64,000 nucleotides of DNA from Chitinophaga pinensis (GCA_943372845.1 CALSAD010000015.1:1389-65388); one strand, 5' to 3'. Shown: positions 1,715-46,827, counted from the first letter of the stretch. Notes: generated from the sequence alone by a model not told the origin. Translations and numbers: made by a program.

Positions 1715-1951
1715 GGATACTTCTTTTGGGTACCTCCGCATAAGATATTTACCGCATAGGCACGAGGGCTTAAGGTTCGCGAGGGGATGGGGCATAGCTG
1801 CTATCAACAGAACGCTTTGGCTTGAAATGCTGCCAGCGTACTTAATAAGTGCCCCCGTTTTGATTCTTAATAACCTTACTAAATGGATTGCGTATAGCCG
1901 GCAGATTTGTGTGGCTTTACGCAATTAGTGTTATTTGGGTTCCGTATATTT

Positions 1952-1967
1952 AAGTGCTAGCGGCAAT
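1952..1967. repeat. Cassette-start box (AAGTGCTAGCGGCAAT), inverted copy of the R1 left end
   Basis: Near-identical to 34367-34382 (AAGTGTTAGCGGCAAT). It is the reverse complement of the TGCCGCTAAC box that opens R1 copies at 3449 and 35233, and lies 57 nt upstream of the 2024 start. Confidence 0.6.
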
Positions 1968-2023
1968 ACATTGAAACAGTTACAAACTACTACTAATATT
2001 ATAACAGCAAACCAAACCTAAAA

Positions 2024-3424
2024 ATGCTAAAGCGACTGACATTATTTATTCTTGTATCCTTTATTGCATGGCAAACAACAACAGCACAAAACTATCATAA
2101 GATTGATAGTTTACGTTTGGTGATACAGAATGCAAAGAAGGTAGATACCTCTCTTGTAAACAATTATCTTTCACTTTCTTTTCAATATACTTTTTATAAA
2201 CCCGATAGTGGATTGGTTTATAATGAGATTGCCGGTAGAATAGCAGACAACTTGCATTTTGAACGTGGCAAATTCCAGCAGCAACTCGGCAAAGCACTCA
2301 ATCACTCCTATTTAAGAAATGATTCTATTGCACTTAAAACTGCCTTTGCTGCTTTGAAGTTTGCAGAAGAAAAAGAAGATGCAAACTACCTGCGACCTGC
2401 ATTAAGAAATTTAGGCTTAGTGTATTATAACATTCGACAGTTTGAAAATGCAATAGTATATGCCAAAAAAGCATGGCAATTGACCTCGCCAACCGATACA
2501 TTAAAGGTAGTTAACCTATGTACAAATATAGGTGAGATTTATATTGATATGAACTTGGTAGATTCTGCAGCAACATATATAAACAAAGGACTTGAGTTCA
2601 GTAGACAGTCTAAAAGATTATCAACTTTTTTGTATTATCTAATGGGTAATATTTATCTTAAGAGGGGCCAATATGATTTAGCATTAAGTTTTTATAAAGA
2701 ATCATATTACTTAGAAACCAATTTCTTCAAGAATGCAAAAGACATCATGGATATTGAAATTGGTATTACGCAAGTATTTGAAAAAAAGGGAAAGATAGAT
2801 TCTGCTATCAGTTATGCTAAGAAAGCATATTATCATTCTAAACAAATGACTTTGCCACGAGAAAAATTAGAATCCTTATTATTGTTAACGTCTTTATACA
2901 AACAAAAAGGAAACATAGACAGTGCATTTGTGTACATTAGTTTAACATCCGATTTGAAAGACAGCCTTATTAATGCTGAAAAGTTCAGGACAATAGGATT
3001 GATGACTTTTAATGAAGAAAGCCGCCAGGAAAAATTAGCAGATGAAAAATCTAAGCTCAAAGAAGAACGTAATCACAATATCCAACTTGCCATTACTGCT
3101 ATCGCCATTTTAAGTGGCATCATTTTATTTCTCTTATTAAGCAGAAGTATTATTGTAAGTCATAAAGTAGTTGAATTTTTAAATGTAGTAGTGTTATTGG
3201 TTGTGTTTGAATTCATCAATCTACTCATTCATCCTTTCCTAGAAAAAGTTACTAATCATTCGCCGGCACTTATGTTAATTGCAATGGTTGTAATTGCTGC
3301 AATTATTGTGCCTTTGCATCATCGCTTAGAACACTGGACAACCAAAAAGTTGGTAGAAAAAAATAAAGCCATTCGGTTGGCAAATGCTAAGAAAACAATT
3401 GAAGAGATAGAGTCGTCTAATTAA
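2024..3424 (+). CDS. TPR-repeat protein with C-terminal transmembrane segments
   Basis: Signal peptide, several TPR-like repeats, then hydrophobic helices (AITAIAILSGIILFLLL, VVVLLVVFEFINLLIHPF, LMLIAMVVIAAIIVPL). No output domain. Confidence 0.6.
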   Translation: MLKRLTLFILVSFIAWQTTTAQNYHKIDSLRLVIQNAKKVDTSLVNNYLSLSFQYTFYKPDSGLVYNEIAGRIADNLHFERGKFQQQLGKALNHSYLRNDSIALKTAFAALKFAEEKEDANYLRPALRNLGLVYYNIRQFENAIVYAKKAWQLTSPTDTLKVVNLCTNIGEIYIDMNLVDSAATYINKGLEFSRQSKRLSTFLYYLMGNIYLKRGQYDLALSFYKESYYLETNFFKNAKDIMDIEIGITQVFEKKGKIDSAISYAKKAYYHSKQMTLPREKLESLLLLTSLYKQKGNIDSAFVYISLTSDLKDSLINAEKFRTIGLMTFNEESRQEKLADEKSKLKEERNHNIQLAITAIAILSGIILFLLLSRSIIVSHKVVEFLNVVVLLVVFEFINLLIHPFLEKVTNHSPALMLIAMVVIAAIIVPLHHRLEHWTTKKLVEKNKAIRLANAKKTIEEIESSN

Positions 3425-3448
3425 TAGATTGATTTCATATGATAGCAC

Positions 3449-3652
3449 ATGCCGCTAACATTGCATAGCAGCGATTGGCGCTGACGAATAACATTCTTCA
3501 ACTGCATCAAAATCCCAGCATAAGTTCCGACTGAAGAAATTCTGAGCGGTAATAGCATATATTATGATCTTTAGTAACTTCATTCAGCGACAATAAGCCA
3601 TGGACGACGGAAGAGCATTCCCCAACCGCTTTAATGCTTGGACGTTACGCCC
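3449..3652 (+). repeat. R1 structured repeat, copy a (attC-like ends)
   Basis: Starts ..TGCCGCTAACATTGCATAGCAGCGATTGG and ends CCAACCGCTTTAATGCTTGGACGTTACGC, so the ends are imperfect inverted repeats. About 80 percent similar by eye to 35233-35438; partial copies at 4953-5090 and 5922-6062. Confidence 0.85.
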
Positions 3653-3707
3653 AATAGCCTACGATACATAAAATTTCTTTGAAAAAAATATATAAACACT
3701 CTAACTA

Positions 3708-4128
3708 ATGGACACTACGCAAATATTTATAAGCTTAGGAAGTGCTGTAATTGGCGGTATTGTAGCGACTTATTTAAAAGCATTCTTAGAGAAAAAGAAG
3801 GAGATTGAAATTAGTTTACAAAAAATAACAGAGGATAAATACAAAGGCCTCTTAATTTTTATGGCTTGTGCAATCGACTTTGAAAAACGAAGATTTTTTT
3901 CCTTAAATGAACAAGTGGCGAACAAATCATCTGTAGACTATTTGAATCAAATAAAAAGAATATTATTATCATTCACTCTTATATTCACCTGATAATGTAA
4001 TTGTAGCTTTAAAGCATTTTGTAAATAACCCTGACAAGGGAAATTATGTTAAGGTCGCAAAAGAAATGCGAAAAGACCTTTGGAATAAGAATACGAAACT
4101 GGATTTTAGCGAAATTCTCTTAGATTGA
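3708..4128 (+). pseudogene. Small membrane-anchored hypothetical protein, frameshifted
   Basis: The ORF 3708-3992 stops, but the +1 frame continues with protein-like sequence (KEYYYHSLLYSPDNVIVALKHFVNNPDKGNYVKVAKEMRKDLWNK..) to a TGA at 4126-4128. The two frames join if one nt of the A5 run at 3953-3957 is skipped. Confidence 0.55.
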
Positions 4129-4282
4129 TATTCCTGAGTAGAACACCAGCTTTCAGCATTTGTGGCTGGAAAGAATAGCGGTTTCATTTACAACATGTTT
4201 TGTCCTGTAAGGCTGACATTTTGACGAAAGCTCCAACATCCAAAAAATTTGAAAGATTAACAATTCTTAGTAGATTTGAGAT

Positions 4283-4519
4283 ATGAAGACGTTAACGCTC
4301 CAAATACCTGATAGTTTAGATGCAAAAGAAGCGCAGACGCTTTTCGCAGCTAAATTATATGAAAAAGGTTCTTTATCGTTAGGGCAAGCTGCAGAACTTG
4401 CAGGGTACTCCAAACGCACTTTCATGGAACTTCTTGCAAACTATGAAGTTTCAGTTTTTAATTATTCAGAGGCAGAATTAAATAAAGAGATTCTCAATGC
4501 ACAAAGCTATCATCTCTGA
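4283..4519 (+). CDS. UPF0175-family antitoxin
   Basis: 78 aa. The motif LFAAKLYEKGSLSLGQAAELAGYSKRTFMELL is typical of UPF0175. Overlaps the downstream PIN-like gene by 23 nt. Confidence 0.75.
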   Translation: MKTLTLQIPDSLDAKEAQTLFAAKLYEKGSLSLGQAAELAGYSKRTFMELLANYEVSVFNYSEAELNKEILNAQSYHL

Positions 4520-4952
4520 CACCAGTTGTTTAATCTTGTTAGACAAAATCGGTGAGCTTGAAATGCTGCATAAATTATTTGGATCAATAATTACTACCAC
4601 TGAGATTGCAAGTGAATTCGGACAACCACTTCCTTCTTGGATTGAAGTAAAGCAGCCATCAGACAATACTTATCAATCAATTATTGAAGCGTCTGTGGAC
4701 AAAGGTGAAGCAAGTGCTATAGCCTTGGCAATAGAATTGGATGATTGCTTACTTATCATTGACGATCTGAAAGGAAGAAAATTTGCAAATCAAATCGGTC
4801 TTGCAATTATTGGAACCATTGGAGTAATTGTAGATGCAAAACTTGCAGGCATCATCCCTTCTGTCAAACCAATATTGACTAAAATTAAGTCAACAAATTT
4901 CAGAATTACAGATGAGTTGGAAGCAATAATTCTGAAAAGATCCGGCGAATAA
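4497..4952 (+). CDS. DUF3368 (PIN-like) toxin
   Basis: ISDTSCLILLDKIG..., GEASAIALAIELDDCLLIIDDLKGRKFA and GTIGVIVDAK match the DUF3368 PIN-like pattern. Translationally coupled to the UPF0175 gene. Confidence 0.75.
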   Translation: MHKAIISDTSCLILLDKIGELEMLHKLFGSIITTTEIASEFGQPLPSWIEVKQPSDNTYQSIIEASVDKGEASAIALAIELDDCLLIIDDLKGRKFANQIGLAIIGTIGVIVDAKLAGIIPSVKPILTKIKSTNFRITDELEAIILKRSGE

Positions 4953-5090
4953 GCATCGATCAATAGTGCATAGGGGTTATGGCTTCGTAAGCAAGGAAGG
5001 TACCTAATGATAACTGTTTTGTCTTGAAGTAGATAGCCATAGCGTCGGAAGATTTTTCCCCAACCGCTGCAATGCCTGAACGTTAGGTGC
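4953..5090 (+). repeat. R1 structured repeat, copy b (short form)
   Basis: The right half (GCCATAGCGTCGGAAGATTTTTCCCCAACCGCTGCAATGCCTGAACGTTAGGTGC) aligns with the other R1 right ends. It ends in GTTAGGT, an exact GTTRRRY, and begins immediately after the stop at 4952. Confidence 0.7.
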
Positions 5091-5165
5091 AAAGTGCTAA
5101 GAACGACACAACTGCCAACACACAAATAGAAAAGAAACATAATTATAAAACAACAAAAGGACAAA

Positions 5166-5804
5166 ATGAGAACTTTAAACAAAGAACTACAAAATTCGAT
5201 TACACCGGCAATGGCAATTGACATTCTCAAAGAAGGAAATAATCGGTTCGTAAATAACCTAAAAGTAAACCGAAACCTTTTGCAACAGGCAAATGAAACT
5301 TCAGACGGACAGCATCCTTTTGCGGTAATTCTTAGTTGCATTGACAGCAGAACTTCGGTAGAATTAATTTTTGACCAAGGACTTGGAGACGTATTTAGTA
5401 TTCGTATTGCAGGAAATATATTAAATGAAGATATTTTAGGTAGTATGGAATTCGGTTGTAAAGTAGCTGGTGCTAAAATCATAGTTGTATTAGGACATAC
5501 AAAATGCGGAGCGGTAAAAGGTGCTTGCGACCATGTTGAAATGGGAAATCTGACTAGCTTGCTCACTAAAATAAGACCTGCCGTTGATGACGAGCAAACT
5601 ACAAAGGAAAATCGCAACTCTGCCAATGGAGAATTTGTAGAAAAAGTGGCAACCATTAATGTAAAACGGACAGTTAAAGCAATAACAGAACGAAGCCCTA
5701 TTTTAAAAGAAATGATGGAAAGCGGTCAAATTGGTATTGTTGGTGGCTCCCACGACATCGCAACCGGCAAGGTGATTTTTTATCATGATACGATAACTCA
5801 ATAA
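5166..5804 (+). CDS. Beta-class carbonic anhydrase
   Basis: Zinc-ligand motifs SCIDSR and GHTKCGA. Confidence 0.9.
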   Translation: MRTLNKELQNSITPAMAIDILKEGNNRFVNNLKVNRNLLQQANETSDGQHPFAVILSCIDSRTSVELIFDQGLGDVFSIRIAGNILNEDILGSMEFGCKVAGAKIIVVLGHTKCGAVKGACDHVEMGNLTSLLTKIRPAVDDEQTTKENRNSANGEFVEKVATINVKRTVKAITERSPILKEMMESGQIGIVGGSHDIATGKVIFYHDTITQ

Positions 5805-5820
5805 CGATAATTTTTATTAT

Positions 5821-5910
5821 CCGCAAAGTGTTCCTTAACAGTTCTCCGCTTGTTCCCTCTGGGAGACATGCGAAGAACTGTTTTTTTATTGGCTTTAAGA
5901 ATACTTTGCA
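5821..5910. repeat. R2 element, short hairpin form (copy a)
   Basis: CCGCAAAGTGTTCCTTAACAGTTCTCCGC ... GCGAAGAACTG...TAAGAATACTTTGCAG. These are the two terminal arms of the R2 element folded on each other without the ~170-bp interior. Confidence 0.65.
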
Positions 5911-5921
5911 GAGAATATAAA

Positions 5922-6062
5922 ATTCCAACATTAGTTCCAGTTGAAGGAATTCTGATCGGCAGTAGCATATATCATCATCTTTAGTAACTTCATTCAGCAA
6001 CAGATAGACATATGCGACGGAAGATCATTCTATAATCGCTTCAATGCCCGGGTGTTGGCAGT
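5922..6062 (+). repeat. R1 structured repeat, copy c (right two-thirds)
   Basis: Aligns with R1a from ..CAGCATAAGTTCCGACTGAAGAAATTCTGAGCGG.. to the end. Ends GGGTGTTGGCAG. Confidence 0.75.
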
Positions 6063-6102
6063 CATACAAAATTTGACGTCCTAAATATTTTAATAATACA
6101 AA

Positions 6103-6972
6103 ATGCAATTACTTACATATTCTTTTCGATGGCTTACGATTCTGTTTTTATTTGTTGCTTTACAGGCGCAGGCGCAGAATGGGGCGGCTTATCAATATCC
6201 ACCAAGTGAGGTTGTAAAGATTCACTCAAGGGTTTTAAACGAAGATCGCAAGGTGTATGTTCATTGCCCTAAAGTAGACTCAGCGGATGTAAACAAACGA
6301 TTTCCCGTATTATACTTACTGGACGCTGACAATCATTTTGAACTTCTTGCTCAGTATGTCGATTATCTTAGTCGCCCAGATGTGTTAGCAATGCCTAAGA
6401 TAATAGTGGTCGGCATTTCAAATACAAAACGAACAAGAGACCTTACACCAACAAATAGCATACTTAACTATGACGGCAAGCCAGATAGCAGTTCGTATAA
6501 ACTCAGTGGCGGGAATGGATTTTTTTTACAGTTCATTGAGACAGAATTGATACCACTGATCGACAAAAATTACAAAACAGAGCCCTATAAAATTTTTGCA
6601 GGGCATTCCTTTGGTGGAATTGCATCTATTCATTGTATGTTAACCCATCCCGATATGTTTGATGCTTATATTGCTGTAAGCCCTTCGCTTTGGTGGGACA
6701 ATGAGCATCTTTTGAAAATGACCGGTGAAAAACTGAAAAGTGGTTCAGTATTTAAAAAAATGTTTTTTTACAGCGATGGAAATGAGGGTGGAAGTAATTC
6801 GTCTTTTCATAAAAGTTTATTGAAATTAGATTCAACAATAGCTACAAAAAAGCTAAAAGGGCTTCATTATCTATATAAACATTACCCAACCGAAACGCAT
6901 ATGACAGAACCAGTTGTGGCTTATTTTGATGCGCTGCGATTTGTTTTTATGGAATGGGCAATGCATCAGTAA
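6103..6972 (+). CDS. Secreted alpha/beta-hydrolase (putative esterase family)
   Basis: Signal peptide and nucleophile elbow GHSFGG. The layout resembles the esterase D / enterochelin-esterase-like family. Confidence 0.7.
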   Translation: MQLLTYSFRWLTILFLFVALQAQAQNGAAYQYPPSEVVKIHSRVLNEDRKVYVHCPKVDSADVNKRFPVLYLLDADNHFELLAQYVDYLSRPDVLAMPKIIVVGISNTKRTRDLTPTNSILNYDGKPDSSSYKLSGGNGFFLQFIETELIPLIDKNYKTEPYKIFAGHSFGGIASIHCMLTHPDMFDAYIAVSPSLWWDNEHLLKMTGEKLKSGSVFKKMFFYSDGNEGGSNSSFHKSLLKLDSTIATKKLKGLHYLYKHYPTETHMTEPVVAYFDALRFVFMEWAMHQ

Positions 6973-7042
6973 GAACAAAAGCCTGTGTGTAAATGCCTGT
7001 ATCAATAACATGGTATGTTATTATCCGAAAATTGTTTTTATC

Positions 7043-7339
7043 ATCCGCGAAGTATTACTTTGCCTTTCTCCGCATGCCTCCCGCCGCGGCGGAGATATTG
7101 CGGTTAGTACCACACAATAATATCGATATTGCAAATCTTCTTCATCGCACAAATGAAGTTAGGTCCATGTCCTGTAACCGATTTTTGAAGTAGTTTATGT
7201 AAACCATACCAAGTATACAACTACTGAGTGAGTGTAGCCGTAAATAGCTTCTTACTAACGTGGATGATACCTGCTTCTAACCGCAATGTCCCTGTTAGGA
7301 GACATGCGGAGAACTGTCTTTTTTTAAGTACCAACACAG
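7043..7339. mobile_element. R2 MITE-like element, full copy b
   Basis: About 300 bp with no credible ORF. Long terminal inverted repeats (ATCCGCGAAGTATT..CTCCGCATGCCTCCC..ATTGCGGTT versus AACCGCAATGTCCC..GGAGACATGCGGAGAAC..). Collinear with 36217-36523. Confidence 0.5.
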
Positions 7340-7436
7340 TAACCTACATTCTGGTACTAATAAAAAAACTCCCTCTCTTTGCAGTAACTTTTCTCCTTAT
7401 TTCTCCGTAAATTGTTATCATCCAAAACCACTAACG

Positions 7437-8828
7437 ATGGCAACTTCCAGAAGAAAATTTTTGCAAACACTGGGGTCTTCCAGTTCTTTGCTGTTAGCCG
7501 GCTTACCGGCCATGGCTGATCAGTCAAACATCCAACAATTATTATCCGCAGTTAAAGTAAGTGCCAATGATAGGGTGCGCATTGCTTTAATTGGTTCGGG
7601 CATCATTGGTCATTATGATACCGATACCGCACTCAAAGTGCCGGGCGTTGAATTGGGGGCTGTATGCGATCTGTATCAGGGCAGATTAGACAGGGCGCAG
7701 GAGAAATGGGGTAAAGAAATCTTTGTTACCCGCAACTACAAGGAAGTGTTAGCCCGGAAAGATATTGATGCCGTTCTGGTTTGCACCTGCGATCACTGGC
7801 ATGATCATATCACTATTGATGCACTCAAAGCCGGCAAACATGTGTATTGTGAAAAACCCATGGTACACCATGTAGAAGAAGGACTTGCCGTTGTGGCTGC
7901 ACAAAAAGTCAGTGGCAAAGTATTGCAGGTGGGCAGTCAATCAGCCAGTTCTGTTTTATTTCTCGAGGCACAAAAATATTTTAAGAAAGGTATTATTGGT
8001 GAGCTGGCTTATGCAGAAGCGTATAACGACAGAAGTTCGGCCAACGGCGCATGGCAATACACCATACCGAATGATGCCAGTACCAAAACCATTGATTGGG
8101 ATCGGTTTCTGGGCGATGCACCGAAAGTTCCTTTTGATCCCGTTCGTTTTTTCCGCTGGCGCAATTACAAAGCCTATGGTACAGGAGTAGCGGGCGATCT
8201 GTTTGTTCATAATTTTACCGGACTGCATACTGTAACCGGTTCCTATGGTCCGGATACCATTTATGCAGCAGGGGCCTTAAACTATTGGAAAGATGGCCGA
8301 GATGCTTATGATATTGTAAGCGGTGTTATGCGTTATCCCAAAACAGAACAGCATAATGGATTTCAATTTTTCACAAGAGTAAACTTAGCTGATGGGGCAG
8401 GTGGCGGCGCCAGCAATCGTTTTATTGGAACAGAAGGTGTGATAGAAGTAAAGTCAAACAGTATTAAAATAAAACATTTTAAACGACCCGTTGCCCCCAG
8501 TATTGGCGGATATGATTCGATGGAGAGTTTTACGAAAACCATGCAACAGTCTTTGCTGGCTGAATACAATGCAAAGTATAGTGCCGAAGACAGGAAAGCA
8601 AAAGATGGAGAGGAAATTATTTTTGAATCGCCCAAAGGTTATGATAGTCGCCTGGATCACATGATCAATTTCTTCGAAGCCATCCGCACCAATAAACCCA
8701 TACTGGAAGATGCCTCTTTTGGTTTACGTGCTGCCGGCCCCGCCATTCTCTGTAACAAGAGTGTAGAAAAGAATCGCGCCATTCATTGGGATGCCAAGAA
8801 TATGAAAGTGATTCCCGAAAAAGCATAA
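7437..8828 (+). CDS. Tat-exported Gfo/Idh/MocA-family oxidoreductase
   Basis: Twin-arginine signal SRRKFLQTLG, Rossmann motif IALIGSGIIG, and KAGKHVYCEKPM. Confidence 0.85.
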   Translation: MATSRRKFLQTLGSSSSLLLAGLPAMADQSNIQQLLSAVKVSANDRVRIALIGSGIIGHYDTDTALKVPGVELGAVCDLYQGRLDRAQEKWGKEIFVTRNYKEVLARKDIDAVLVCTCDHWHDHITIDALKAGKHVYCEKPMVHHVEEGLAVVAAQKVSGKVLQVGSQSASSVLFLEAQKYFKKGIIGELAYAEAYNDRSSANGAWQYTIPNDASTKTIDWDRFLGDAPKVPFDPVRFFRWRNYKAYGTGVAGDLFVHNFTGLHTVTGSYGPDTIYAAGALNYWKDGRDAYDIVSGVMRYPKTEQHNGFQFFTRVNLADGAGGGASNRFIGTEGVIEVKSNSIKIKHFKRPVAPSIGGYDSMESFTKTMQQSLLAEYNAKYSAEDRKAKDGEEIIFESPKGYDSRLDHMINFFEAIRTNKPILEDASFGLRAAGPAILCNKSVEKNRAIHWDAKNMKVIPEKA

Positions 8829-8837
8829 CTACAAATA

Positions 8838-8899
8838 ACCGTGCCTTCGTGCCTTGGTGTGCAAATTACTTTCTCACACCAAGGCACTAAGGCACGGTT
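8838..8899. repeat. REP-like palindromic element, family A (copy A2)
   Basis: AACCGTGCCTTCGTGCCTTGGTGTG - loop - CACACCAAGGCACTAAGGCACGGTT. Confidence 0.85.
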
Positions 8900-8943
8900 T
8901 AAGAATACACAACCGCTTACCTTACTCATACAATTGCTTATTC

Positions 8944-10350: not shown

Positions 10351-11361
10351 TTATTTGGAACTGTTGCGCTCTATTAAACTGCTTTTTAGTACAATCTTGT
10401 CAATGCGGTTACCAAATGTTTTTTTCTCAATCATCCGGAAAAGTAAGGAGGCAGATTCTTTGCCTATTTCAAATGCCGGTTGCGTAATGGTAGATAAGGA
10501 AGGATTCAGCAGTGAAGCGGTTCTTAAGTTGGAAAAACTGATGATCTTGATTTGCTGTGGTATTTTCAGTTTGATTTCGTTACAAACATAATAGGTAGAG
10601 ATAGATAGTTTTTCAACTGTAGAAAAAATACCATCGGGCCTGTCTTTTTTAGACAATAATTTTTTGATCAATTCCAGGTTGGCCGTATTATCATTGGTAC
10701 ATTCCACAATGAACTTGGGATCTTCTTTTAGCTTGTATTTTTTCAGTGCATCCTTGTATCCATCCATTCTTTTATGAGTTATAGATAGCAGGCTGGATAA
10801 AGACAAACAGGCAATTTTTTTACAGCCTGCTTTGATCAGGTGTTCGGTTGCTTTAAATCCGCTCTCATAATCATCGGTGGTAACGGTGGGGCAGTTCATC
10901 ATTTCAGGTACGCGATCAAAGAATACCAACGGTATACCGGTGTCTTGCAAGGCAGTAAGGTGTTTGATGCTTTCTGTATCGCGGCACAAAGAAATCAATA
11001 CGCCATCAACCCGGCCACCCTGCAGGTGCTTGATGGTAGATTCTTCATTCATAAAATTTTCGTGGGTAAGGTAGGTAAGTACATGGTACCCTTTTTGCTG
11101 GGCAATCATTTGTATTCCATCAATGGCCAATGCGAAAAAGTTATTCGCTATCTCCGGTATTACTACTGCAATGGTGATACTTTTTTTTCTGCGTAAACTA
11201 CTGGCAAAGGGGTTGGGTTGGTAATTGAGTTTTTCAGCCATGGCCCGCACCCTTTTTTTGGTTTCGGCACTGATCTCATAACTGTCGCGAAGGGCTTTTG
11301 ATACAGAGGAGATAGACAGGCCAAGCTCTTCAGATAATCTTTTTAAATTGATGCTACTCAT
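10351..11361 (-). CDS. LacI-family transcriptional regulator
   Basis: N-terminal HTH INLKRLSEELGLSISSVSKALRD followed by a periplasmic-binding-protein-like sugar-binding fold. Confidence 0.9.
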   Translation of the reverse strand: MSSINLKRLSEELGLSISSVSKALRDSYEISAETKKRVRAMAEKLNYQPNPFASSLRRKKSITIAVVIPEIANNFFALAIDGIQMIAQQKGYHVLTYLTHENFMNEESTIKHLQGGRVDGVLISLCRDTESIKHLTALQDTGIPLVFFDRVPEMMNCPTVTTDDYESGFKATEHLIKAGCKKIACLSLSSLLSITHKRMDGYKDALKKYKLKEDPKFIVECTNDNTANLELIKKLLSKKDRPDGIFSTVEKLSISTYYVCNEIKLKIPQQIKIISFSNLRTASLLNPSLSTITQPAFEIGKESASLLFRMIEKKTFGNRIDKIVLKSSLIERNSSK

Positions 11362-11518: not shown

Positions 11519-11615
11519 CTCCGCGTAAACTCTGAAAACTCTGCGGCTCTGCGGTTGGAGCAAGTTCAATCAACCGCGGAGCCGCAGAGAACAGAGAGTT
11601 TTTCGCAGAGAAAAA
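11519..11615. repeat. Palindromic intergenic element, family C (copy C2)
   Basis: CTCCGCGTAAACTCTGAAAACTCTGCGGCTCTGCGGTTG ... CAACCGCGGAGCCGCAGAGAACAGAGAGTTTTTCGCAGAG. Confidence 0.8.
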
Positions 11616-22347: not shown

Positions 22348-22959
22348 ATGAAAACACCTACTCGCATAACCAGATTGCTTTTCGTAAGCTGCCTGTTTTT
22401 TTTAGCTGCTGATGTTGTTGCACAGGTTAAATCCACAACTGCCTTACAGGGTACTTATCGAACCATTTTTGAAATGCTTCGCGATGTTCCCGGACTGGAA
22501 GTGAAAACAAGTACCGACCGCAGTGGTGGCAGTGTGATTGTAAGAGGGGTGAGCAGTTTGAATAACCAGAAGCCACCCTTGTTTGTAGTGGATGGCGCAG
22601 TATATGCCGGTGATATTTCAAGTATTAATCCCCAGGATGTGGATGCGATCAGTGTATTAAAAGATGCCGCTTCCGCTACAGCCTATGGCGCGCAGGGGGC
22701 AGCCGGTGTTATTTTGATCACCACCAAAAAAGGGCAAGGCCTTTCTTCAAAAGCGTCGGTTGTTTCGCATGAAGGGTCGGCGTACAAGTATTTTATTGAA
22801 AATAAAATTGCTTTAAAAGTCTTCGGACAGGATGAGAAAGTAATCATAGAAGGAGTGCCGCAAAAACAGGTAGAAGAATCCTTACTGTTTATCGTTAAGC
22901 GCAAGGAAGTAAAGATTCCCATAAAAGATATCAAGCGGGTTGAAATGATCAGGGATTAA
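22348..22959 (+). CDS. Stand-alone TonB-dependent-receptor plug-domain protein (no barrel)
   Basis: Signal peptide. LRDVPGLEVK..VIVRGVSSLNNQKPPLFVVDGAVYAGDISSINPQDVDAISVLKDAASATAYGAQGAAGVILITTKKG aligns with the plug of the SusC-like protein in this window. Only 203 aa. Confidence 0.7.
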   Translation: MKTPTRITRLLFVSCLFFLAADVVAQVKSTTALQGTYRTIFEMLRDVPGLEVKTSTDRSGGSVIVRGVSSLNNQKPPLFVVDGAVYAGDISSINPQDVDAISVLKDAASATAYGAQGAAGVILITTKKGQGLSSKASVVSHEGSAYKYFIENKIALKVFGQDEKVIIEGVPQKQVEESLLFIVKRKEVKIPIKDIKRVEMIRD

Positions 22960-31697: not shown

Positions 31698-31754
31698 AAC
31701 TGCGCCTTTGCGCCTTGACGTGAATATTTCTCGCAAAGGCGCAAAGGCGCAGTT
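31698..31754. repeat. REP-like palindromic element, family A variant
   Basis: AACTGCGCCTTTGCGCCTTG - loop - CAAAGGCGCAAAGGCGCAGTT. It has the same doubled GCCTT architecture as family A, with GCGCC replacing GTGCC. Confidence 0.7.
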
Positions 31755-31767
31755 AGAAAGGATAAGC

Positions 31768-34140: not shown

Positions 34141-34366
34141 TTAGGTTGAATTTAGAAGGATTTTTATAGGAGAAGTGGCTGGTTTAGTAGAGAGAAAGTC
34201 ATGTGGTAGACATTATTTGCTTTTTGGGTAGATAGGTTTGCCATTTTTGTGGATGGTATTTACCCACTCTTTACCATTTACCTAATTAACAAAATTTATT
34301 TTTATTGAGGATCAATGAATTAATTATTGGGGAAGTATTGAAAAATATAGAAACCTGTGTACTTTC

Positions 34367-34382
34367 AAGTGTTAGCGGCAAT
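34367..34382. repeat. Cassette-start box (AAGTGTTAGCGGCAAT)
   Basis: GTGTTAGCGGCA (34369-34380) is the exact reverse complement of TGCCGCTAACAC (35235-35246) on the other side of the 34397-35230 gene. A similar box lies at 1952-1967. Confidence 0.65.
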
Positions 34383-34396
34383 GGTAAAATAACAGT

Positions 34397-35230
34397 ATGA
34401 ACTTCAAAGAGATTTTACAGGACAAACCAAATGGTGCCTATACTGATGTGGAAGATGTTATAATAAACACTTCACATCGCTATAGTAATGACGAGAAAGT
34501 ACTTATCGCATCACCTGATCTTGAATTATTCTGTAATGAGTGTAATGGCGTTCGAAATTTTGTTAGGGAATTATATCCTTATACTATTGGTGACCCGGAT
34601 ATCGAAATTGACTATCCTTATGCATACCTCTTAGACTATTTATGTTCGAACTGTAAGCTTGAATTGAAATACTTTGCACTACAAATAAGTCAAATTGAAA
34701 ATAGCACAAGTGCAAACGTCTATAAATTTGGTGAACTGCCAAATCGAATAAATAATTTGCCTGCCGCCCTAATTACGCTATTTGGTTCAGACAAAGACCT
34801 ATTAATAAAAGGAAAAAATTGCGAAACTCAAGGCTTAGGAATTGGAGCGATGGTTTATTATAGGCGAATTGTTGAAAATAAAAGGAGAAACTTATTTGAC
34901 CTAATTATAAAAGCGCTTAAAAAAATTGGAGGACACGAACAAGAGATACTAAAAATAGAAGCAGCAAAGAATGAACCACAGTTTACAAAATCATTTGAGC
35001 AAGTAAAGAAGATTCTTCCACAAGAACTATTTATTGACGGACATAATCCGTTGACCTTATTACATTCAGCAGTAAGTAAAGGCGTTCATAATTTATCCGA
35101 TGAAGAATGCTTAGAAATTGCGACAAGCATTCGTGTTGTGCTGACAGAATTAGTGAACAGGATCGCTGTGATTTCATCAAATGAAAAATCATTGAAGTCA
35201 GCATTGGCAAACCTTAATAAATTGAAATAA
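34397..35230 (+). CDS. Hypothetical zinc-ribbon protein (possible DUF4145-like helical C-terminus)
   Basis: Two CxxC pairs (CNECNG, CSNCK). The C-terminal helices with YYRRIVE and LLHSAVSKGVHNLSDEE resemble DUF4145. The assignment is from memory only. Confidence 0.55.
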   Translation: MNFKEILQDKPNGAYTDVEDVIINTSHRYSNDEKVLIASPDLELFCNECNGVRNFVRELYPYTIGDPDIEIDYPYAYLLDYLCSNCKLELKYFALQISQIENSTSANVYKFGELPNRINNLPAALITLFGSDKDLLIKGKNCETQGLGIGAMVYYRRIVENKRRNLFDLIIKALKKIGGHEQEILKIEAAKNEPQFTKSFEQVKKILPQELFIDGHNPLTLLHSAVSKGVHNLSDEECLEIATSIRVVLTELVNRIAVISSNEKSLKSALANLNKLK

Positions 35231-35232
35231 CT

Positions 35233-35438
35233 ACTGCCGCTAACACTGCATTGCAGCAATTGGGGCTCACGAATAACGTTCTTCAACTGCATCAAAAATC
35301 CCAGCATCTGTTCCGGCTGAAGGAATTCTGAGCGGCAGTAGAATATATCATGATCTTTTGTAACTTAGTTCAGCGACAGTAAGCCATGGGCGACGGAATA
35401 GCATTCCCCAACCGCTTCAATGCTTGGACGTTGGCGGT
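35233..35438 (+). repeat. R1 structured repeat, copy d (full length)
   Basis: TGCCGCTAACACTGCATTGCAGCAATTGGGG ... CCCCAACCGCTTCAATGCTTGGACGTTGGCGG. The terminal inverted repeats match 15/18 in the GCATTG..TTGGGG block. Begins 3 nt after the stop at 35230. Confidence 0.85.
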
Positions 35439-35465
35439 AAGCCTAAATCAAACAGTTCGCTTTTT

Positions 35466-36020
35466 ATGAAACACATAATATATTTACACCTATTTCTATT
35501 TATTCAATCAGCTTGCTATGCACAGAGTAAAAATGGACCCGCAGAAGTAACAAAAGAGATTGAAAAAAAAATTAATCAAGAAATTACTAAAGAATCAGGG
35601 TTATTAAAATCGCGTCTGACAGATTCGAAAGAAGCCACAGATGTAATTGAATTTACTTTGGATACTTTTAGAATAGAAAAATATCGGGAAAGATTTATTG
35701 ACTACGATTGGTCGACAGCGGGTATGAGATCAGCAACATATGATGCAGCAGATAAATATGACAGATTATTAAACAAATACTACAAAAAACTTTTATTAAT
35801 TCTTAAACAAGTCGATAAGTCGGTTCTTATAAACGTCCAAAAATCTTGGATTAGTTTCAGAGACAATGAACTGAAGCTTATCGGAACTATTAGTAAAGAT
35901 GAGTATTCAGGCGGTGGGACAATACAAGGGATACTAAATGCATCAGATTATTTAGAAATTATTAAGCAACGAACATTTACAATTTATCAGCACTACCTGA
36001 GAGCGGCACAAATATATTGA
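35466..36020 (+). CDS. DUF1311 (LprI-like) domain protein, secreted
   Basis: Signal peptide MKHIIYLHLFLFIQSACYAQ, then LLNKYYKKLL..QKSWISFRDNE...GGGTIQG. The 35424 start lies inside repeat R1d, so it was rejected. Confidence 0.7.
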   Translation: MKHIIYLHLFLFIQSACYAQSKNGPAEVTKEIEKKINQEITKESGLLKSRLTDSKEATDVIEFTLDTFRIEKYRERFIDYDWSTAGMRSATYDAADKYDRLLNKYYKKLLLILKQVDKSVLINVQKSWISFRDNELKLIGTISKDEYSGGGTIQGILNASDYLEIIKQRTFTIYQHYLRAAQIY

Positions 36021-36030
36021 TAGAAAAGGC

Positions 36031-36166
36031 AGTACGACTGAGTGGTTGTACTCATAAATAGTTCATTACTAACCTACATAATGCCAGCTCCGATCCGCAA
36101 CGTCCCCTTGCGGGAGACATGCGGGGAACTTTCTGTTTTAGGTGGGCTTAAGAATACTTTGCACAG
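36031..36166. mobile_element. R2 element, truncated copy c (right part only)
   Basis: Aligns with 36381-36523 of the full copy, including the right terminal arm AACGTCCCCTTGCGGGAGACATGCGGGGAAC..AAGAATACTTTGCACAG. Confidence 0.55.
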
Positions 36167-36190
36167 AATAAAATAAATGCATAATTCAGG

Positions 36191-36210
36191 GGCCACAGAT
36201 TCGCAGATTA
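36191..36210. repeat. Family B half element (B2)
   Basis: GGCCACAGATTCGCAGATTA is the left arm only. Confidence 0.6.
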
Positions 36211-36216
36211 TTTATT

Positions 36217-36523
36217 ATCCGCAAAGTATTCCTTTGTCTTTCTCCGCATGTCTCCCGATAGGGGACATTGCGGTTTGTAGCACATAGCAACATCAATATG
36301 GTCAATCTTCTTCATCGCACAAATAAAATTAGGCCAATGTGCTTAACCGTTTTTTGAAGTAGCGTATGTAAACCCTGCAAAGTATACAACAACTAAGTGG
36401 TTGTGTACCCGTTAAGAATTGAATACTAACCTGGATAATGCCTGCTCCTAACCGCAATGTCCCCTTGCGGGAGACATGCGGAGAACTTTCTGTTTTAGGT
36501 GGGCTTAAGAATACTTTGCACAG
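36217..36523. mobile_element. R2 MITE-like element, full copy d
   Basis: Left arm ATCCGCAAAGTATTCCTTTGTCTTTCTCCGCATGTCTCCCGATAGGGGACATTGCGGTT. Right arm AACCGCAATGTCCCCTTGCGGGAGACATGCGGAGAAC..AAGAATACTTTGCACAG. The interior is collinear with 7043-7339. Confidence 0.55.
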
Positions 36524-36548
36524 AATAAAATAAATGCATAATTCCGGG

Positions 36549-36594
36549 GCCGCAGATTCGCAGATTATTAGCTGAAAATCTGCGAATCTGCGGC
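36549..36594. repeat. REP-like hairpin, family B (copy B3)
   Basis: GCCGCAGATTCGCAGATT - loop - AATCTGCGAATCTGCGGC. Confidence 0.85.
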
Positions 36595-36699
36595 AAAATT
36601 CCTCACCACCCTCCAATATGTTTAAAACTGATACACTGCTTACAAACTTTGCAATTCTTTAATCACAATAAATTCAGTAAATTTGATTAAAAGGAACTC

Positions 36700-36933
36700 A
36701 TGGTAGGACACATTATTAACATCGACCCGGAAATTTTAGGAGGAACTCCTGTTTTCAGTGGCACCCGTGTTCCTATTAAGAATCTTTTTGACTATCTCGA
36801 ATCCGGAGAATCCATTGATTATTTCCTTGATGACTTCGAATCTGTTCAGCGTGAGCAAGTAATCAAGCTTCTTGAAATGTCTCAACGTCTTATTGAAACT
36901 TCATCAAATATTCTGCATGAAAATATTGCTTGA
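36700..36933 (+). CDS. DUF433-family antitoxin-like protein
   Basis: DPEILGGTPVFSGTRVPIKNLFDYLESGESIDYFLDDF matches the DUF433 signature. Confidence 0.8.
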   Translation: MVGHIINIDPEILGGTPVFSGTRVPIKNLFDYLESGESIDYFLDDFESVQREQVIKLLEMSQRLIETSSNILHENIA

Positions 36934-39242: not shown

Positions 39243-39281
39243 TGATGTCAAATGTGTTGTGCGGTTTACTTTTTCATTCCA

Positions 39282-39342
39282 AACCGTGCTTTCGTGCCTT
39301 TGCGTGCTATTTTTTTTCACACCAAGGCACAAAGGCACGGTT
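39282..39342. repeat. REP-like palindromic element, family A (copy A3)
   Basis: AACCGTGCTTTCGTGCCTTTGCGTG - T-rich loop - CACACCAAGGCACAAAGGCACGGTT. Confidence 0.85.
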
Positions 39343-39350
39343 ATAATACT

Positions 39351-40352: not shown

Positions 40353-40374
40353 GAGAAGGGGATTCATTGTGTTC

Positions 40375-40418
40375 TTTCTCTGCGAAACCTCTCTGATCTC
40401 TGCGGCTCTGCGGTGAAA
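40375..40418. repeat. Family C half element (C3)
   Basis: TTCTCTGCGAAACCTCTCTGATCTCTGCGGCTCTGCGGTGAAAA is the left arm only. Confidence 0.7.
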
Positions 40419-40522
40419 AGGGTTGTATTCATTTCGGATGGGTAAGCTGTTCGTGATGCACAGATTAAAAGTTTCTAAAAAATATTATTTACTTACACAC
40501 TTCTGATAATAACACATTTCGT

Positions 40523-42553: not shown

Positions 42554-42620
42554 GCCGCAGACCTGCCTGCCGGCGAGGCAAGTTCGCAGATTATTAACCT
42601 GAAATCTGCGAATCTGCGGC
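42554..42620. repeat. REP-like hairpin, family B (copy B4) with internal insertion
   Basis: GCCGCAGA-[CCTGCCTGCCGGCGAGGCAAG]-TTCGCAGATT - loop - AATCTGCGAATCTGCGGC. The left arm is interrupted by a 21-nt GC-rich mini-hairpin. Confidence 0.75.
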
Positions 42621-42747
42621 AAAGAATGCTGAATGCATATCTACAGATACAGTACCCTATCATAAGTGATTTGTTTGAACAGTACAGGTCATGACGGTTG
42701 CCAATAGGTAATCATTAGTTTTCGTTACTGTTCATCTTATGCTATAA

Positions 42748-46730: not shown

Positions 46731-46827
46731 TTTTTTTCACCGCGGAGGCGCAGAGAGCGCTGAGTTTTCGCAGAGAAATTCTTCTCTGCGTTTTCTCACC
46801 GTCCTCCCCGCCTCTGCGGTGAAAAAA
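46731..46827. repeat. Palindromic intergenic element, family C (copy C4, arms in swapped order)
   Basis: TTTCACCGCGGAGGCGCAGAGAGCGCTGAGTTTTCGCAGAGAA ... TTCTCTGCGTTTTCTCACCGTCCTCCCCGCCTCTGCGGTGAAA. Confidence 0.8.

Follow-up and report, generated by a model that had tools for sequence, protein, structure and literature searches.

Integron-like gene cassette arrays with hairpin sites of about 200 nt in a Chitinophaga pinensis contig, and a candidate Xer-like recombinase at the head of related Bacteroidota arrays

Introduction

Integrons are defined by the integrase IntI, whose insertion reads the extrahelical bases of the folded attC site, and the typical length of attC is about 57-141 bp. In integrons of the Treponema type, the integrase gene is co-oriented with the cassettes, as in the arrays described below; the Treponema-type integrases are canonical IntI proteins carrying the insertion, and the accompanying attC sites have the usual size. 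Here we describe R1, a repeat of about 204 nucleotides (nt) found in a 64-kb stretch of Chitinophaga pinensis DNA (GCA_943372845.1 CALSAD010000015.1:1389-65388), this whole stretch being referred to as the window. As judged from its distribution, its boundaries, and the covariation of its arms, R1 probably represents the recombination site of a gene cassette system of integron type.

On canonical attC, the extrahelical bases are located on the arm near L'' (Nivina 2016, PMC5027507), and the IntI insertion was noted to be essential for integron function (Smyshlyaev et al., PMC8138268). With respect to Bacteroidetes, the IntegronFinder 2.0 survey of complete genomes identified only In0 elements, that is, IntI without detectable attC, and one complete integron, in Salinibacter (PMC9024848).

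A sequence-only reading of the window had proposed that its positions 1952-7339 form an array of cassette-like units punctuated by an attC-like repeat. The computational analysis reported here leads us, with a probability of about 0.78, to the reading that R1 is an attC-type recombination site bounding mobile gene cassettes, that the window contains two recombinase-less arrays anchored at attI-core-like sequences, and that the arrays of relatives are headed by an Xer-like recombinase.

Results

The R1 family in arrays of Bacteroidota

The R1 family was searched for by an exact-pattern scan for TTCCCCAACCGCTNNAATGC through 185,579 genomes, one per species. Among the 42 loci detected, about 26 belong to Chitinophagaceae or other Bacteroidota (Sediminibacterium, Limnovirga soli, and metagenome-assembled genomes, MAGs), and the remaining loci correspond to the number of chance matches expected. 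The metagenome scan yielded only 10 loci under the strict pattern, and R1 was not found in viral contigs. A profile built from full R1 copies was then applied to 0.41 Mb of loci, and 99 R1-like copies were detected in 36 loci. The three copies that had been recognized from the sequence alone, R1a, R1b, and R1c, turned out to be genuine members of one repeat family; a fourth full copy, R1d, located in a second island of the window, had been overlooked, and R1b and R1c are defective.

Along its length of about 204 nt, R1 consists of 7 variable nt and AAC, a left arm, a centre of about 140 nt, a right arm, and GTT followed by 7 variable nt. Alignments of 20 and of 41 distinct copies place the limits of conservation precisely at AAC and at GTT, with variable 7-mers outside these triplets. 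The surrounding RYYY/RRRY consensus is loosely followed, with forms including GCCGCTAAC and ACGCACAAC. The end motifs of the window copies had been read correctly (TGCCGCTAAC on the left; GTTACGC, GTTAGGT, and GTTGGCA on the right), and so had the imperfect inverted repetition of the arms: CCAAYCGCTNNAATGC matches the right arm on the plus strand and the left arm on the minus strand, with 6 matches against 1.05 expected. A search of the whole window against Rfam 15 at gathering threshold gave 0 matches. An origin of R1 as a gene remnant was considered and rejected; a semi-conserved peptide is encoded on the minus strand, but the family consensus carries stop codons in that frame.

The arrays are dense, following the order open reading frame (ORF)-R1-ORF-R1 with 10-50 nt between parts. 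A single orientation was observed in all 23 loci holding at least two copies. Among 72 copies with an intact left end, 59 had the stop codon of a same-strand ORF within -40 to +60 nt (median 13), against 7 for the opposite-strand control. As had been expected for a cassette array, a scatter of copies in either orientation was thus not observed. No R1 precedes the first cassette of an array, and a homologue of the window TPR gene in locus L011 carries an R1 remnant after its stop codon; the ORF with which R1 moves is therefore the upstream one.

The length of the site is variable. In L012, a natural site of about 75 nt (2216-2295; CCGCTAAC ACCGTTT GCAGCGATTGGGG CACGGAACATTTTT CCCCAACCGCTTCAATGCCTGGAC GTT), which has the size of a canonical attC, is present in the same array as 200-nt copies and consists of both arms and a 14-nt centre. 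Since the arms are retained in this short version, the 140-nt centre appears to be dispensable.

Complementarity between neighbouring copies

An array of units that were once circles closed at GTT should show pairing between the sequence that follows GTT in one copy and the sequence that precedes AAC in its downstream neighbour, rather than between the two ends of a single copy. We compared the two 7-mers concerned, that following GTT in copy i and the reverse complement of that preceding AAC in copy i+1, for 20 consecutive pairs, among them both window boundaries. The agreement was 5.4/7 on average, and 8 of the 20 pairs were perfect. The two ends of the same copy agreed at 3.7/7, none being perfect, and the all-against-all level was 3.1/7; among 20,000 permutations of the partners, none reached the observed mean. 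An upstream search for GTT plus the expected 7-mer identified a partner with 0-1 mismatch for most copies, and also exposed more diverged sites that the profile had overlooked. This complementarity with the next copy is the signature of a circular cassette. It excludes a transposon-like repeat and fixes the crossover at or beside GTT. The description as an attC-like cassette array has accordingly gained in strength, as the cassette-boundary rule of integrons holds statistically and the hairpin is kept by covariation, as described next.

Hairpin of R1 and strand bias

The arms of R1 pair through AAC/GTT, an asymmetric spacer (ATT on the left and TTGGAC on the right), and an 18-bp stem. Within the 41-copy alignment, AAC/GTT was paired in 92.7% of cells. 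For the 16 counted pairs of the inner stem, the level of pairing was 89.9%, and 10 of the 16 pairs showed changes on both sides. Slid controls, with the partner shifted by 1-3 columns, gave 31-44% pairing for the whole structure. In diverged copies the stem is rewritten completely with the pairing intact, as in L022, where GGCGTTATGGCGG pairs with CCGCCACAACGCC.

The mismatches remaining in the stem are strongly biased. An A x C mismatch at one position is invariant in 39 of the 41 copies, and on the top strand the mismatches were A.C or C.A in 30 cases and G.T or T.G in 5; on the bottom strand, the top-strand A.C mismatches turn into T.G wobbles. When the arms were folded with DNA parameters in the reconstructed circle form, the bottom strand was more stable in 39/41 copies (p = 5e-8). 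These calculations show the bottom strand of R1 as the strand predicted to fold, as in attC. R1 shares with canonical attC the R and L boxes, the unpaired spacer, and a variable terminal part. Extrahelical single-base bulges near L'' are absent from the L stem of R1; its asymmetry resides in the spacer, 3 nt on the left against 6 nt on the right, placing the extra bases on the R'/L' side.

A recombinase and attI at the head of arrays

The window and 25 Bacteroidota loci (about 0.23 Mb), together with 10 metagenome loci (about 0.07 Mb), were searched by tblastn with IntI1, and only Xer-like proteins without the IntI insertion were detected. Pfam analysis of 68 ORFs of at least 230 amino acids (aa) from the 25 loci gave at most one member of Phage_integrase, indicating that no integrase is located near most of the 8-kb blocks. 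In the first loci, the tyrosine recombinases near R1 were Xer-like and adjoined IS91-family transposases. The Xer-like tblastn hits were initially taken for pure passengers of IS91. One further recombinase, of 416 aa, heads the minus-strand array of L046 and has no IS91 of its own.

Proteins of the array-head family have about 400-416 aa and combine PF13495 and PF00589 with an additional N-terminal domain. They are common among Sediminibacterium, Chitinophagaceae, Chitinophagales, and Bacteroidota MAGs, and are named at NCBI only as generic recombinases. Nine family members, 57-70% identical to the query, were inspected in addition to L046. In six contigs (L046, L055, L057 with seven sites, L058, L062, and L068), R1-type sites are located directly downstream of the recombinase gene and co-oriented with it.

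The stop codon of the recombinase gene is followed by a conserved region of about 150 nt, herein designated attI, with repeated GCGAAAGTTT and AAACTTTCGC motifs. This region ends with ..CTTTCGC(A/C)TATTTTTGA/GTT (slash, boundary), followed by 7 nt and then the first cassette. The attI end after GTT agreed with the left end of the first downstream R1 at 10/10, 10/10, 10/10, and 9/10 positions in four contigs. Moreover, the last ~20 nt of attI, as found in L057, L058, and L046, align with both island boundaries of the window and with those of L044, L047, L015, and L039; the window contains only these last ~20 nt of the attI region. A TAnnTTTG-like sequence is the -7 promoter consensus of Bacteroidota. 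A box of this type, TATTTTTG in L057 and L058 and TATATTTA in the window, is present at the end of attI, where it may serve as the -7 element of a promoter reading into the first cassette.

Three unrelated contigs (L054, L061, and L067) end inside or exactly at the end of attI (..AAACTTTCGCCTATTT[TTGA]), and contig L063 ends about 120 nt past the crossover, within the first cassette. Such contig breaks at attI suggest that the first cassette is variable within the sampled population, or that the site is multi-copy.

The array-head recombinase was compared with IntI and Xer proteins by sequence and by predicted fold. Against IntI1, the catalytic residues are present and the IntI insertion of about 40 aa is absent. 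Among NCBIfam models, an XerA-type model scored 178 bits, and the integron integrase model TIGR02249 scored 158 bits (150-167 within the family) against a cutoff of 265. In a sequence search of PDB, XerA-like 4a8e was matched at 7e-29, and IntI4 was matched at the C-terminus only. The AlphaFold model (predicted local distance difference test score, 77) consists of a confident alpha/beta domain at residues 1-94, a low-confidence linker, and SAM-like core-binding and catalytic domains, the extra N-terminal region of about 140 aa thus being made up of the ~95-residue alpha/beta domain plus the linker. In the Foldseek search with this model, XerA (5hxy, 1.8e-13) and IntI4 (2.6e-13) were nearly equal, and no match was found for the N-terminal domain. 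By these comparisons of sequence and model, the array-head protein is classified as a tyrosine recombinase of the Xer/IntI clade without the IntI insertion.

Units composed of an Xer-like recombinase of 243-286 aa and an IS91-family transposase were observed inside R1 arrays, i.e., L046 at 5434-7502 and 367-2316 (the latter equal to L022 at 2312-4261) and L050 at 1945-3803. The recombinase of these IS91 units is about 35% identical to the array-head family. The two IS91 units in L046 are about 95% identical and are bounded by GTT/GAACCAACATCG ... GGATACTTTTCTTATT/GTT+7, exactly at the GTT of attI and of R1, and thus look as if they had been inserted by the same kind of crossover.

Two cassette islands of the window

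Two A+T-rich stretches of functionally unrelated genes on the plus strand, islands 1 and 2, lie amid housekeeping genes of the window. The islands, their left boundaries, and the four R1 copies of the window, all on the plus strand, are as follows.

1952-7339, genes on the plus strand only: island 1, flanked by the genes of a DUF1003 protein (1304-1714) and of a GFO/IDH/MocA oxidoreductase (7437-8828)
1940-1965, plus: left boundary of island 1, attI-core-like TTCCGTATATTTAAGTG, crossover triplet at 1956-1958, then AGCGGCA of cassette 1
3450-3646, plus: R1a, full copy; 7 nt at 3450-3456, AAC at 3457-3459, GTT at 3644-3646; homology extent 3449-3654
5031-5084, plus: right arm of R1b, GTT at 5082-5084; degenerate left arm at about 4944-4980; clear homology only at 5031-5094
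5919-6056, plus: R1c, 3' 140 nt only, without left arm; homology extent 5919-6065
34371-36600, plus: island 2, of the same design as island 1, with a 277-aa ORF, R1d, and an LprI-family gene
34352-34380, plus: left boundary of island 2, attI-core-like ..TGTGTACTTTCAAGT, GTT at 34371-34373, then AGCGGCA
35235-35432, plus: R1d; 7 nt at 35235-35241, AAC at 35242-35244, GTT at 35430-35432; homology extent 35234-35444

Both islands open with the reverse complement of an R1 left end, a feature that the sequence-only reading had overlooked. In island 1, GCTAGCGGCA at 1956-1965 is the reverse complement of the R1a left end at 9/10 positions, and in island 2, GTTAGCGGCA at 34371-34380 agrees fully (10/10) with the reverse complement of the R1d left end. 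The crossover triplet at the left boundary of island 1 is GCT; elsewhere it is GTT. R1d is a full copy with 90% identity to R1a. In L029 (2078-2100), AGCGGCTAGCACTTGAAACG after the GTT of R1 bears the left-boundary motif TTYAAGTGYTAGC on the opposite strand, which hints at a palindromic target TTTCAAGTGCTAGCACTTGAAA; such a target was not seen at the right ends of the window islands.

Between these boundaries, the following units were recognized.

1959-3646, plus: cassette 1, with the ORF of a TPR membrane protein (2024-3424), then the full site R1a
3647-5084, plus: decayed double cassette, with a small ORF (3708-3992), an R1 left-arm remnant, the UPF0175/DUF3368 toxin-antitoxin pair, and R1b
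4142-4168: R1 left-arm remnant GAACACCAGCTTTCAGCATTTGTGGCTGG, a weak match between the small ORF and the toxin-antitoxin pair
4283-4519 and 4497-4952, plus: UPF0175 and DUF3368, respectively, the toxin-antitoxin pair identified by Pfam
5085-6056, plus: carbonic anhydrase cassette, in which beta-carbonic anhydrase (5166-5804) is followed by a terminator-like hairpin (5838-5887, belonging to the repeat R2) and by R1c
6057-7330, plus: final unit of island 1, with an esterase (6103-6972), then R2 at 7037-7330; no R1
34374-35432, plus: cassette of island 2, with a 277-aa protein (34397-35230), then the full site R1d
35433-36570, plus: remainder of island 2, with the LprI-family gene (ORF listed as 35424-36020), then three R2 segments at 36046-36570; no R1

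Pfam analysis of the island 1 ORFs confirmed the gene assignments made at first sight (TPR protein, UPF0175 plus DUF3368, beta-carbonic anhydrase, and esterase), and gave no match for the 277-aa protein of island 2. The A+T-richness of island 1, previously estimated by eye, was borne out by a G+C content of 0.29-0.39 within it against 0.41-0.46 on both flanks. The R1 copies had been placed 0-25 nt after stop codons, and this position had to be corrected for R1c, which lies 115 nt past the carbonic anhydrase stop. Since R1c is devoid of the left arm, its hairpin cannot form. The weak match at 4142-4168 is probably the leftover of a site that formerly divided two cassettes. The defects of R1b and R1c indicate that part of island 1 is probably frozen, and the units carrying the toxin-antitoxin pair, the carbonic anhydrase, and the esterase have probably become fixed.

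Island 1 holds three R1 copies and island 2 one, with no recombinase gene nearby. As had been noted at the outset, there is no integrase in view: no tyrosine recombinase was found in the 64-kb window, the rest of which has the usual content of a Bacteroidota chromosome, including SusC/SusD genes, glycoside hydrolases, and oxidoreductases. Provided that R1 is accepted as an attC-type site, the assignment of both islands to the type of CALIN (cluster of attC sites lacking integron integrases, defined by at least two attC sites without an integrase gene in the vicinity) is supported.

The gene content at one and the same boundary differs between close relatives, in agreement with the expectation for a cassette array. 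L064 is a Sediminibacterium MAG with the same neighbours on both sides; its flanking DUF1003 protein is 90% identical to that of the window. The left boundary of island 1, GGGGTTGAGTATATTTAAGT/GTTGGCTGCTAT, was found at the orthologous site of L064. Four units follow this boundary in the window, and in L064 it is followed by a degraded ORF with an R1-like site, a fragment of a mechanosensitive (MS) channel gene, and a DUF2490 gene. The homology between L064 and the window resumes at the last hairpin before the oxidoreductase gene, at about 7296-7330. No island is present in L065, of which the DUF1003 protein is 88% identical. A further observation was made for L064 at 11240-11300 and the window at 5085-5130: the first ~50 nt past the GTTAGGTGCAA end of R1 are alike and lead into different genes, i.e., carbonic anhydrase in the window and the MS-channel fragment in L064. 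A cassette leader may thus be exchanged separately from its gene.

Other repeats and genes of the window

A second repeat family, R2, occupies the right-hand end of both islands (5813-5920, 7037-7330, and 36046-36570). It is built from two segment types, in the order A-B-A in island 2 and B-A in island 1, and forms nested hairpins of the form CCGCATGTCTCCC..GGGGACATTGCGG, with 43-nt arms that are 91% complementary and 160 nt apart. The last R2 hairpin plus its T-run resembles a terminator, and this hairpin is retained at the orthologous right boundary of L064. Among the other loci, R2 was represented by a single short piece in L022 (1194-1276).

At least three more families of short intergenic hairpin repeats are present in the window. 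They are of the type of repetitive extragenic palindromic (REP) elements and, unlike R1, occur in both orientations.

1188-1280, 11519-11602, 40372-40419, 46732-46827: hairpin family CTCTGCGAAA..TTTTCACCGCAGAG
3-72, 8835-8907, 31726-31762, 39281-39350: hairpin family TTTTCACACCAAGGCAC..
36544-36597, 42570-42623: hairpin family CGCAGATTCGCAGATT..

Just to the right of island 2, a DUF433 antitoxin-type gene (36700-36933) has a stop codon that overlaps the start of the next ORF, and these two genes form a second toxin-antitoxin-like pair beside a cassette island. The 203-aa ORF at 22348-22959 carries only the Plug domain of TonB receptors and may be a truncated receptor gene.

Discussion

Proposed mode of cassette recombination

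We propose that the unit beginning with the 7 nt that follow a GTT, passing through one or a few ORFs, and ending at the GTT of the next R1 would constitute a cassette, which would be excised in circular form and integrated at a GTT. The Xer-like recombinase is the candidate catalyst of this reaction. It would bind the folded bottom strand of R1 and attI, the substrate presumably being single-stranded DNA; excision would take place by recombination between two R1 copies, and insertion would use the GTT of attI or that of secondary sites resembling attI. The two arrays of the window may be served in trans from elsewhere in the genome, or they may be relics.

Several observations weigh against this interpretation. 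With no recombinase in the window, we infer the action of the enzyme on both of its arrays, and half of the R1 copies there (2/4, R1b and R1c) are defective. The recombinases form a large family, many of them being encoded on short contigs, and only six contexts were informative. The elements composed of IS91 plus a recombinase in the arrays are a possible alternative source of the activity, and it is possible that a canonical IntI is encoded elsewhere in the R1-bearing genomes. With regard to structure, the DNA folding energies of whole R1 were no better than those of shuffled sequences on both strands (z = -0.1 to -0.75), and RNAalifold gave no consensus for the top (sense) strand of the 41-copy alignment; the structural support lies in the arms, not in the centre. 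The 140-nt centre is also unusually conserved between genera (83% mean column identity among 20 pattern-matched copies), for which the model gives no explanation.

Alternative explanations

The first alternative is that R1 units are ordinary integron cassettes, R1 being a long but bona fide attC, the canonical IntI being encoded elsewhere, and the Xer-like recombinase being a bystander or part of a separate mobile element. The logic of the sites is indeed wholly integron-like, IntI genes without detectable attC are on record for Bacteroidetes as In0 (PMC9024848), and sites of the length of R1 might escape the standard attC model. We nevertheless regard this explanation as unlikely, at roughly one chance in eight. 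With IntI1 as the tblastn query, the window and loci yielded only Xer-like proteins that lack the insertion; immediately behind the Xer-like recombinase lies an attI, and its GTT and the first R1 conform to the cassette rule; and R1 is devoid of extrahelical bases near L'', the feature that is read by the IntI insertion.

R1 could also act as RNA, in the form of a structured 3' untranslated region, a terminator, or a small antisense RNA from the bottom strand. Its location directly after stop codons agrees with such a role, the wobble bias of the bottom strand would fit G.U pairs of an antisense RNA, and the conserved 140-nt centre does need explaining. On the other hand, R1 has no Rfam family at gathering threshold, no consensus by RNAalifold on the sense strand, and no T-run after the hairpin, and the short natural site in L012 points to a dispensable centre. 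Above all, the cassette rule, the link to attI, and the variation in gene content would be left unexplained, so that RNA action as the sole role of R1 is very improbable; an RNA role could coexist with the role in recombination.

Least probable of all, with hardly any chance left to it, is a miniature inverted-repeat transposable element (MITE) or REP-like element that spreads by transposition downstream of genes and accumulates into arrays in permissive regions: the terminal inverted arms, the many copies per genome, the highly conserved interior, and the other hairpin repeat families of the same window would suit such an element, but R1 is flanked by neither target-site duplications nor direct repeats, keeps a strict orientation relative to the upstream ORF, has flanking 7-mers complementary between neighbouring copies rather than within a copy, bounds different genes in relatives, and forms arrays that start at a defined site beside a recombinase gene.

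Comparison with known recombination systems

The attC-type reading of R1 implies close similarity to sedentary chromosomal integrons and CALINs. The cassettes are co-oriented, mostly contain one ORF, and end in an imperfect palindrome with an AAC...GTT frame; the crossover is at GTT, and the start of each cassette is complementary to the inverse core in the site of that cassette. Of the two strands, the bottom one is favoured in folded form, and the centre of the site is variable in length (14-140 nt for R1). A primary insertion site is located beside the recombinase gene, and recombinase-less clusters are found elsewhere in the chromosome. Toxin-antitoxin cassettes are included, and the site sequence is near-uniform per lineage, as for the Vibrio cholerae repeats (VCRs) in Vibrio.

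The differences from integrons are equally distinct. The recombinase of the R1 system is without the IntI insertion of about 40 aa and carries the extra N-terminal region of about 140 aa instead, and its gene is co-oriented with the cassettes and directly upstream of them. R1 measures about 204 nt, its R box 10 bp, and its L stem 18 bp; single-base bulges near L'' are replaced by the invariant A x C mismatch, which reads T.G on the bottom strand, and by a spacer with 3 extra nt on the R'/L' side. The host belongs to Chitinophagaceae (Bacteroidota). The description of the locus as a CALIN-like array or a new kind of structured repeat is therefore supported as a whole, and the second option is the closer one, because the array-head recombinase is not a canonical IntI and R1 is without the canonical extrahelical bases.

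Among Xer recombinases (XerC/D and archaeal XerA), the array-head protein is closest to XerA by sequence and fold, and like them it belongs to the simple tyrosine recombinases, which have no arm-binding domain; it differs in having its own adjacent insertion site and the extra N-terminal domain. The pdif (plasmid dif) modules of Acinetobacter plasmids resemble R1 units as discrete gene units bounded by recombination sites. The Xer-dependent modules, including pdif and the integrative mobile elements exploiting Xer (IMEX), are different with respect to the site: dif-type sites are double-stranded and about 28 bp long, and pdif sites alternate in orientation, whereas R1 copies are hairpin-forming 200-nt palindromes in one orientation, with stem covariation and strand bias. 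The units of recombinase plus IS91 within R1 arrays (L046/L022 and L050) recall the IS91/ISCR (insertion sequence common region) elements tied to integrons; these units are, however, not found in the window, and the identity of their recombinase to the array-head family is only about 35%.

Implications

Taken together, we lean, somewhat beyond even odds, towards the view that Chitinophagaceae, and perhaps Bacteroidota more widely, own an integron-type system composed of an Xer-like recombinase without the IntI insertion, hairpin sites of about 200 nt without extrahelical bases, and an attI that doubles as a promoter, as an independent invention or a surviving early stage of the integron principle. 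The joint absence of the IntI insertion and of the extrahelical bases that it reads is coherent, because the insertion is essential for integron function (PMC8138268). A literature search of partial coverage found no published description of these sites, or of the recombinase as a cassette integrase, which is weak evidence of novelty.

For the window itself, the proposed reading accounts for two A+T-rich islands of unrelated genes among housekeeping genes. In a wider sense, the full integron logic, i.e., cassettes, a hairpin site, bottom-strand bias, attI, and recombinase-less satellite arrays, would here be coupled to a recombinase without the insertion, and the R1 system lacks two features that define integrons, the IntI insertion and the extrahelical bases. 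It represents an integron-like variant, and there is a considerable probability that the integron principle is present here in an independent or ancestral form. If this is true, cassettes can be recombined at folded single-stranded sites without the IntI insertion and without extrahelical bases. If the recombinase is confirmed, the origin of integrons would become experimentally approachable through two solutions to one problem, and detection tools based on the IntI C-terminal profile and the attC model would have a blind spot. The R1 arrays would then reveal an extensive reservoir of mobile accessory genes carried by Bacteroidota of freshwater and soil.

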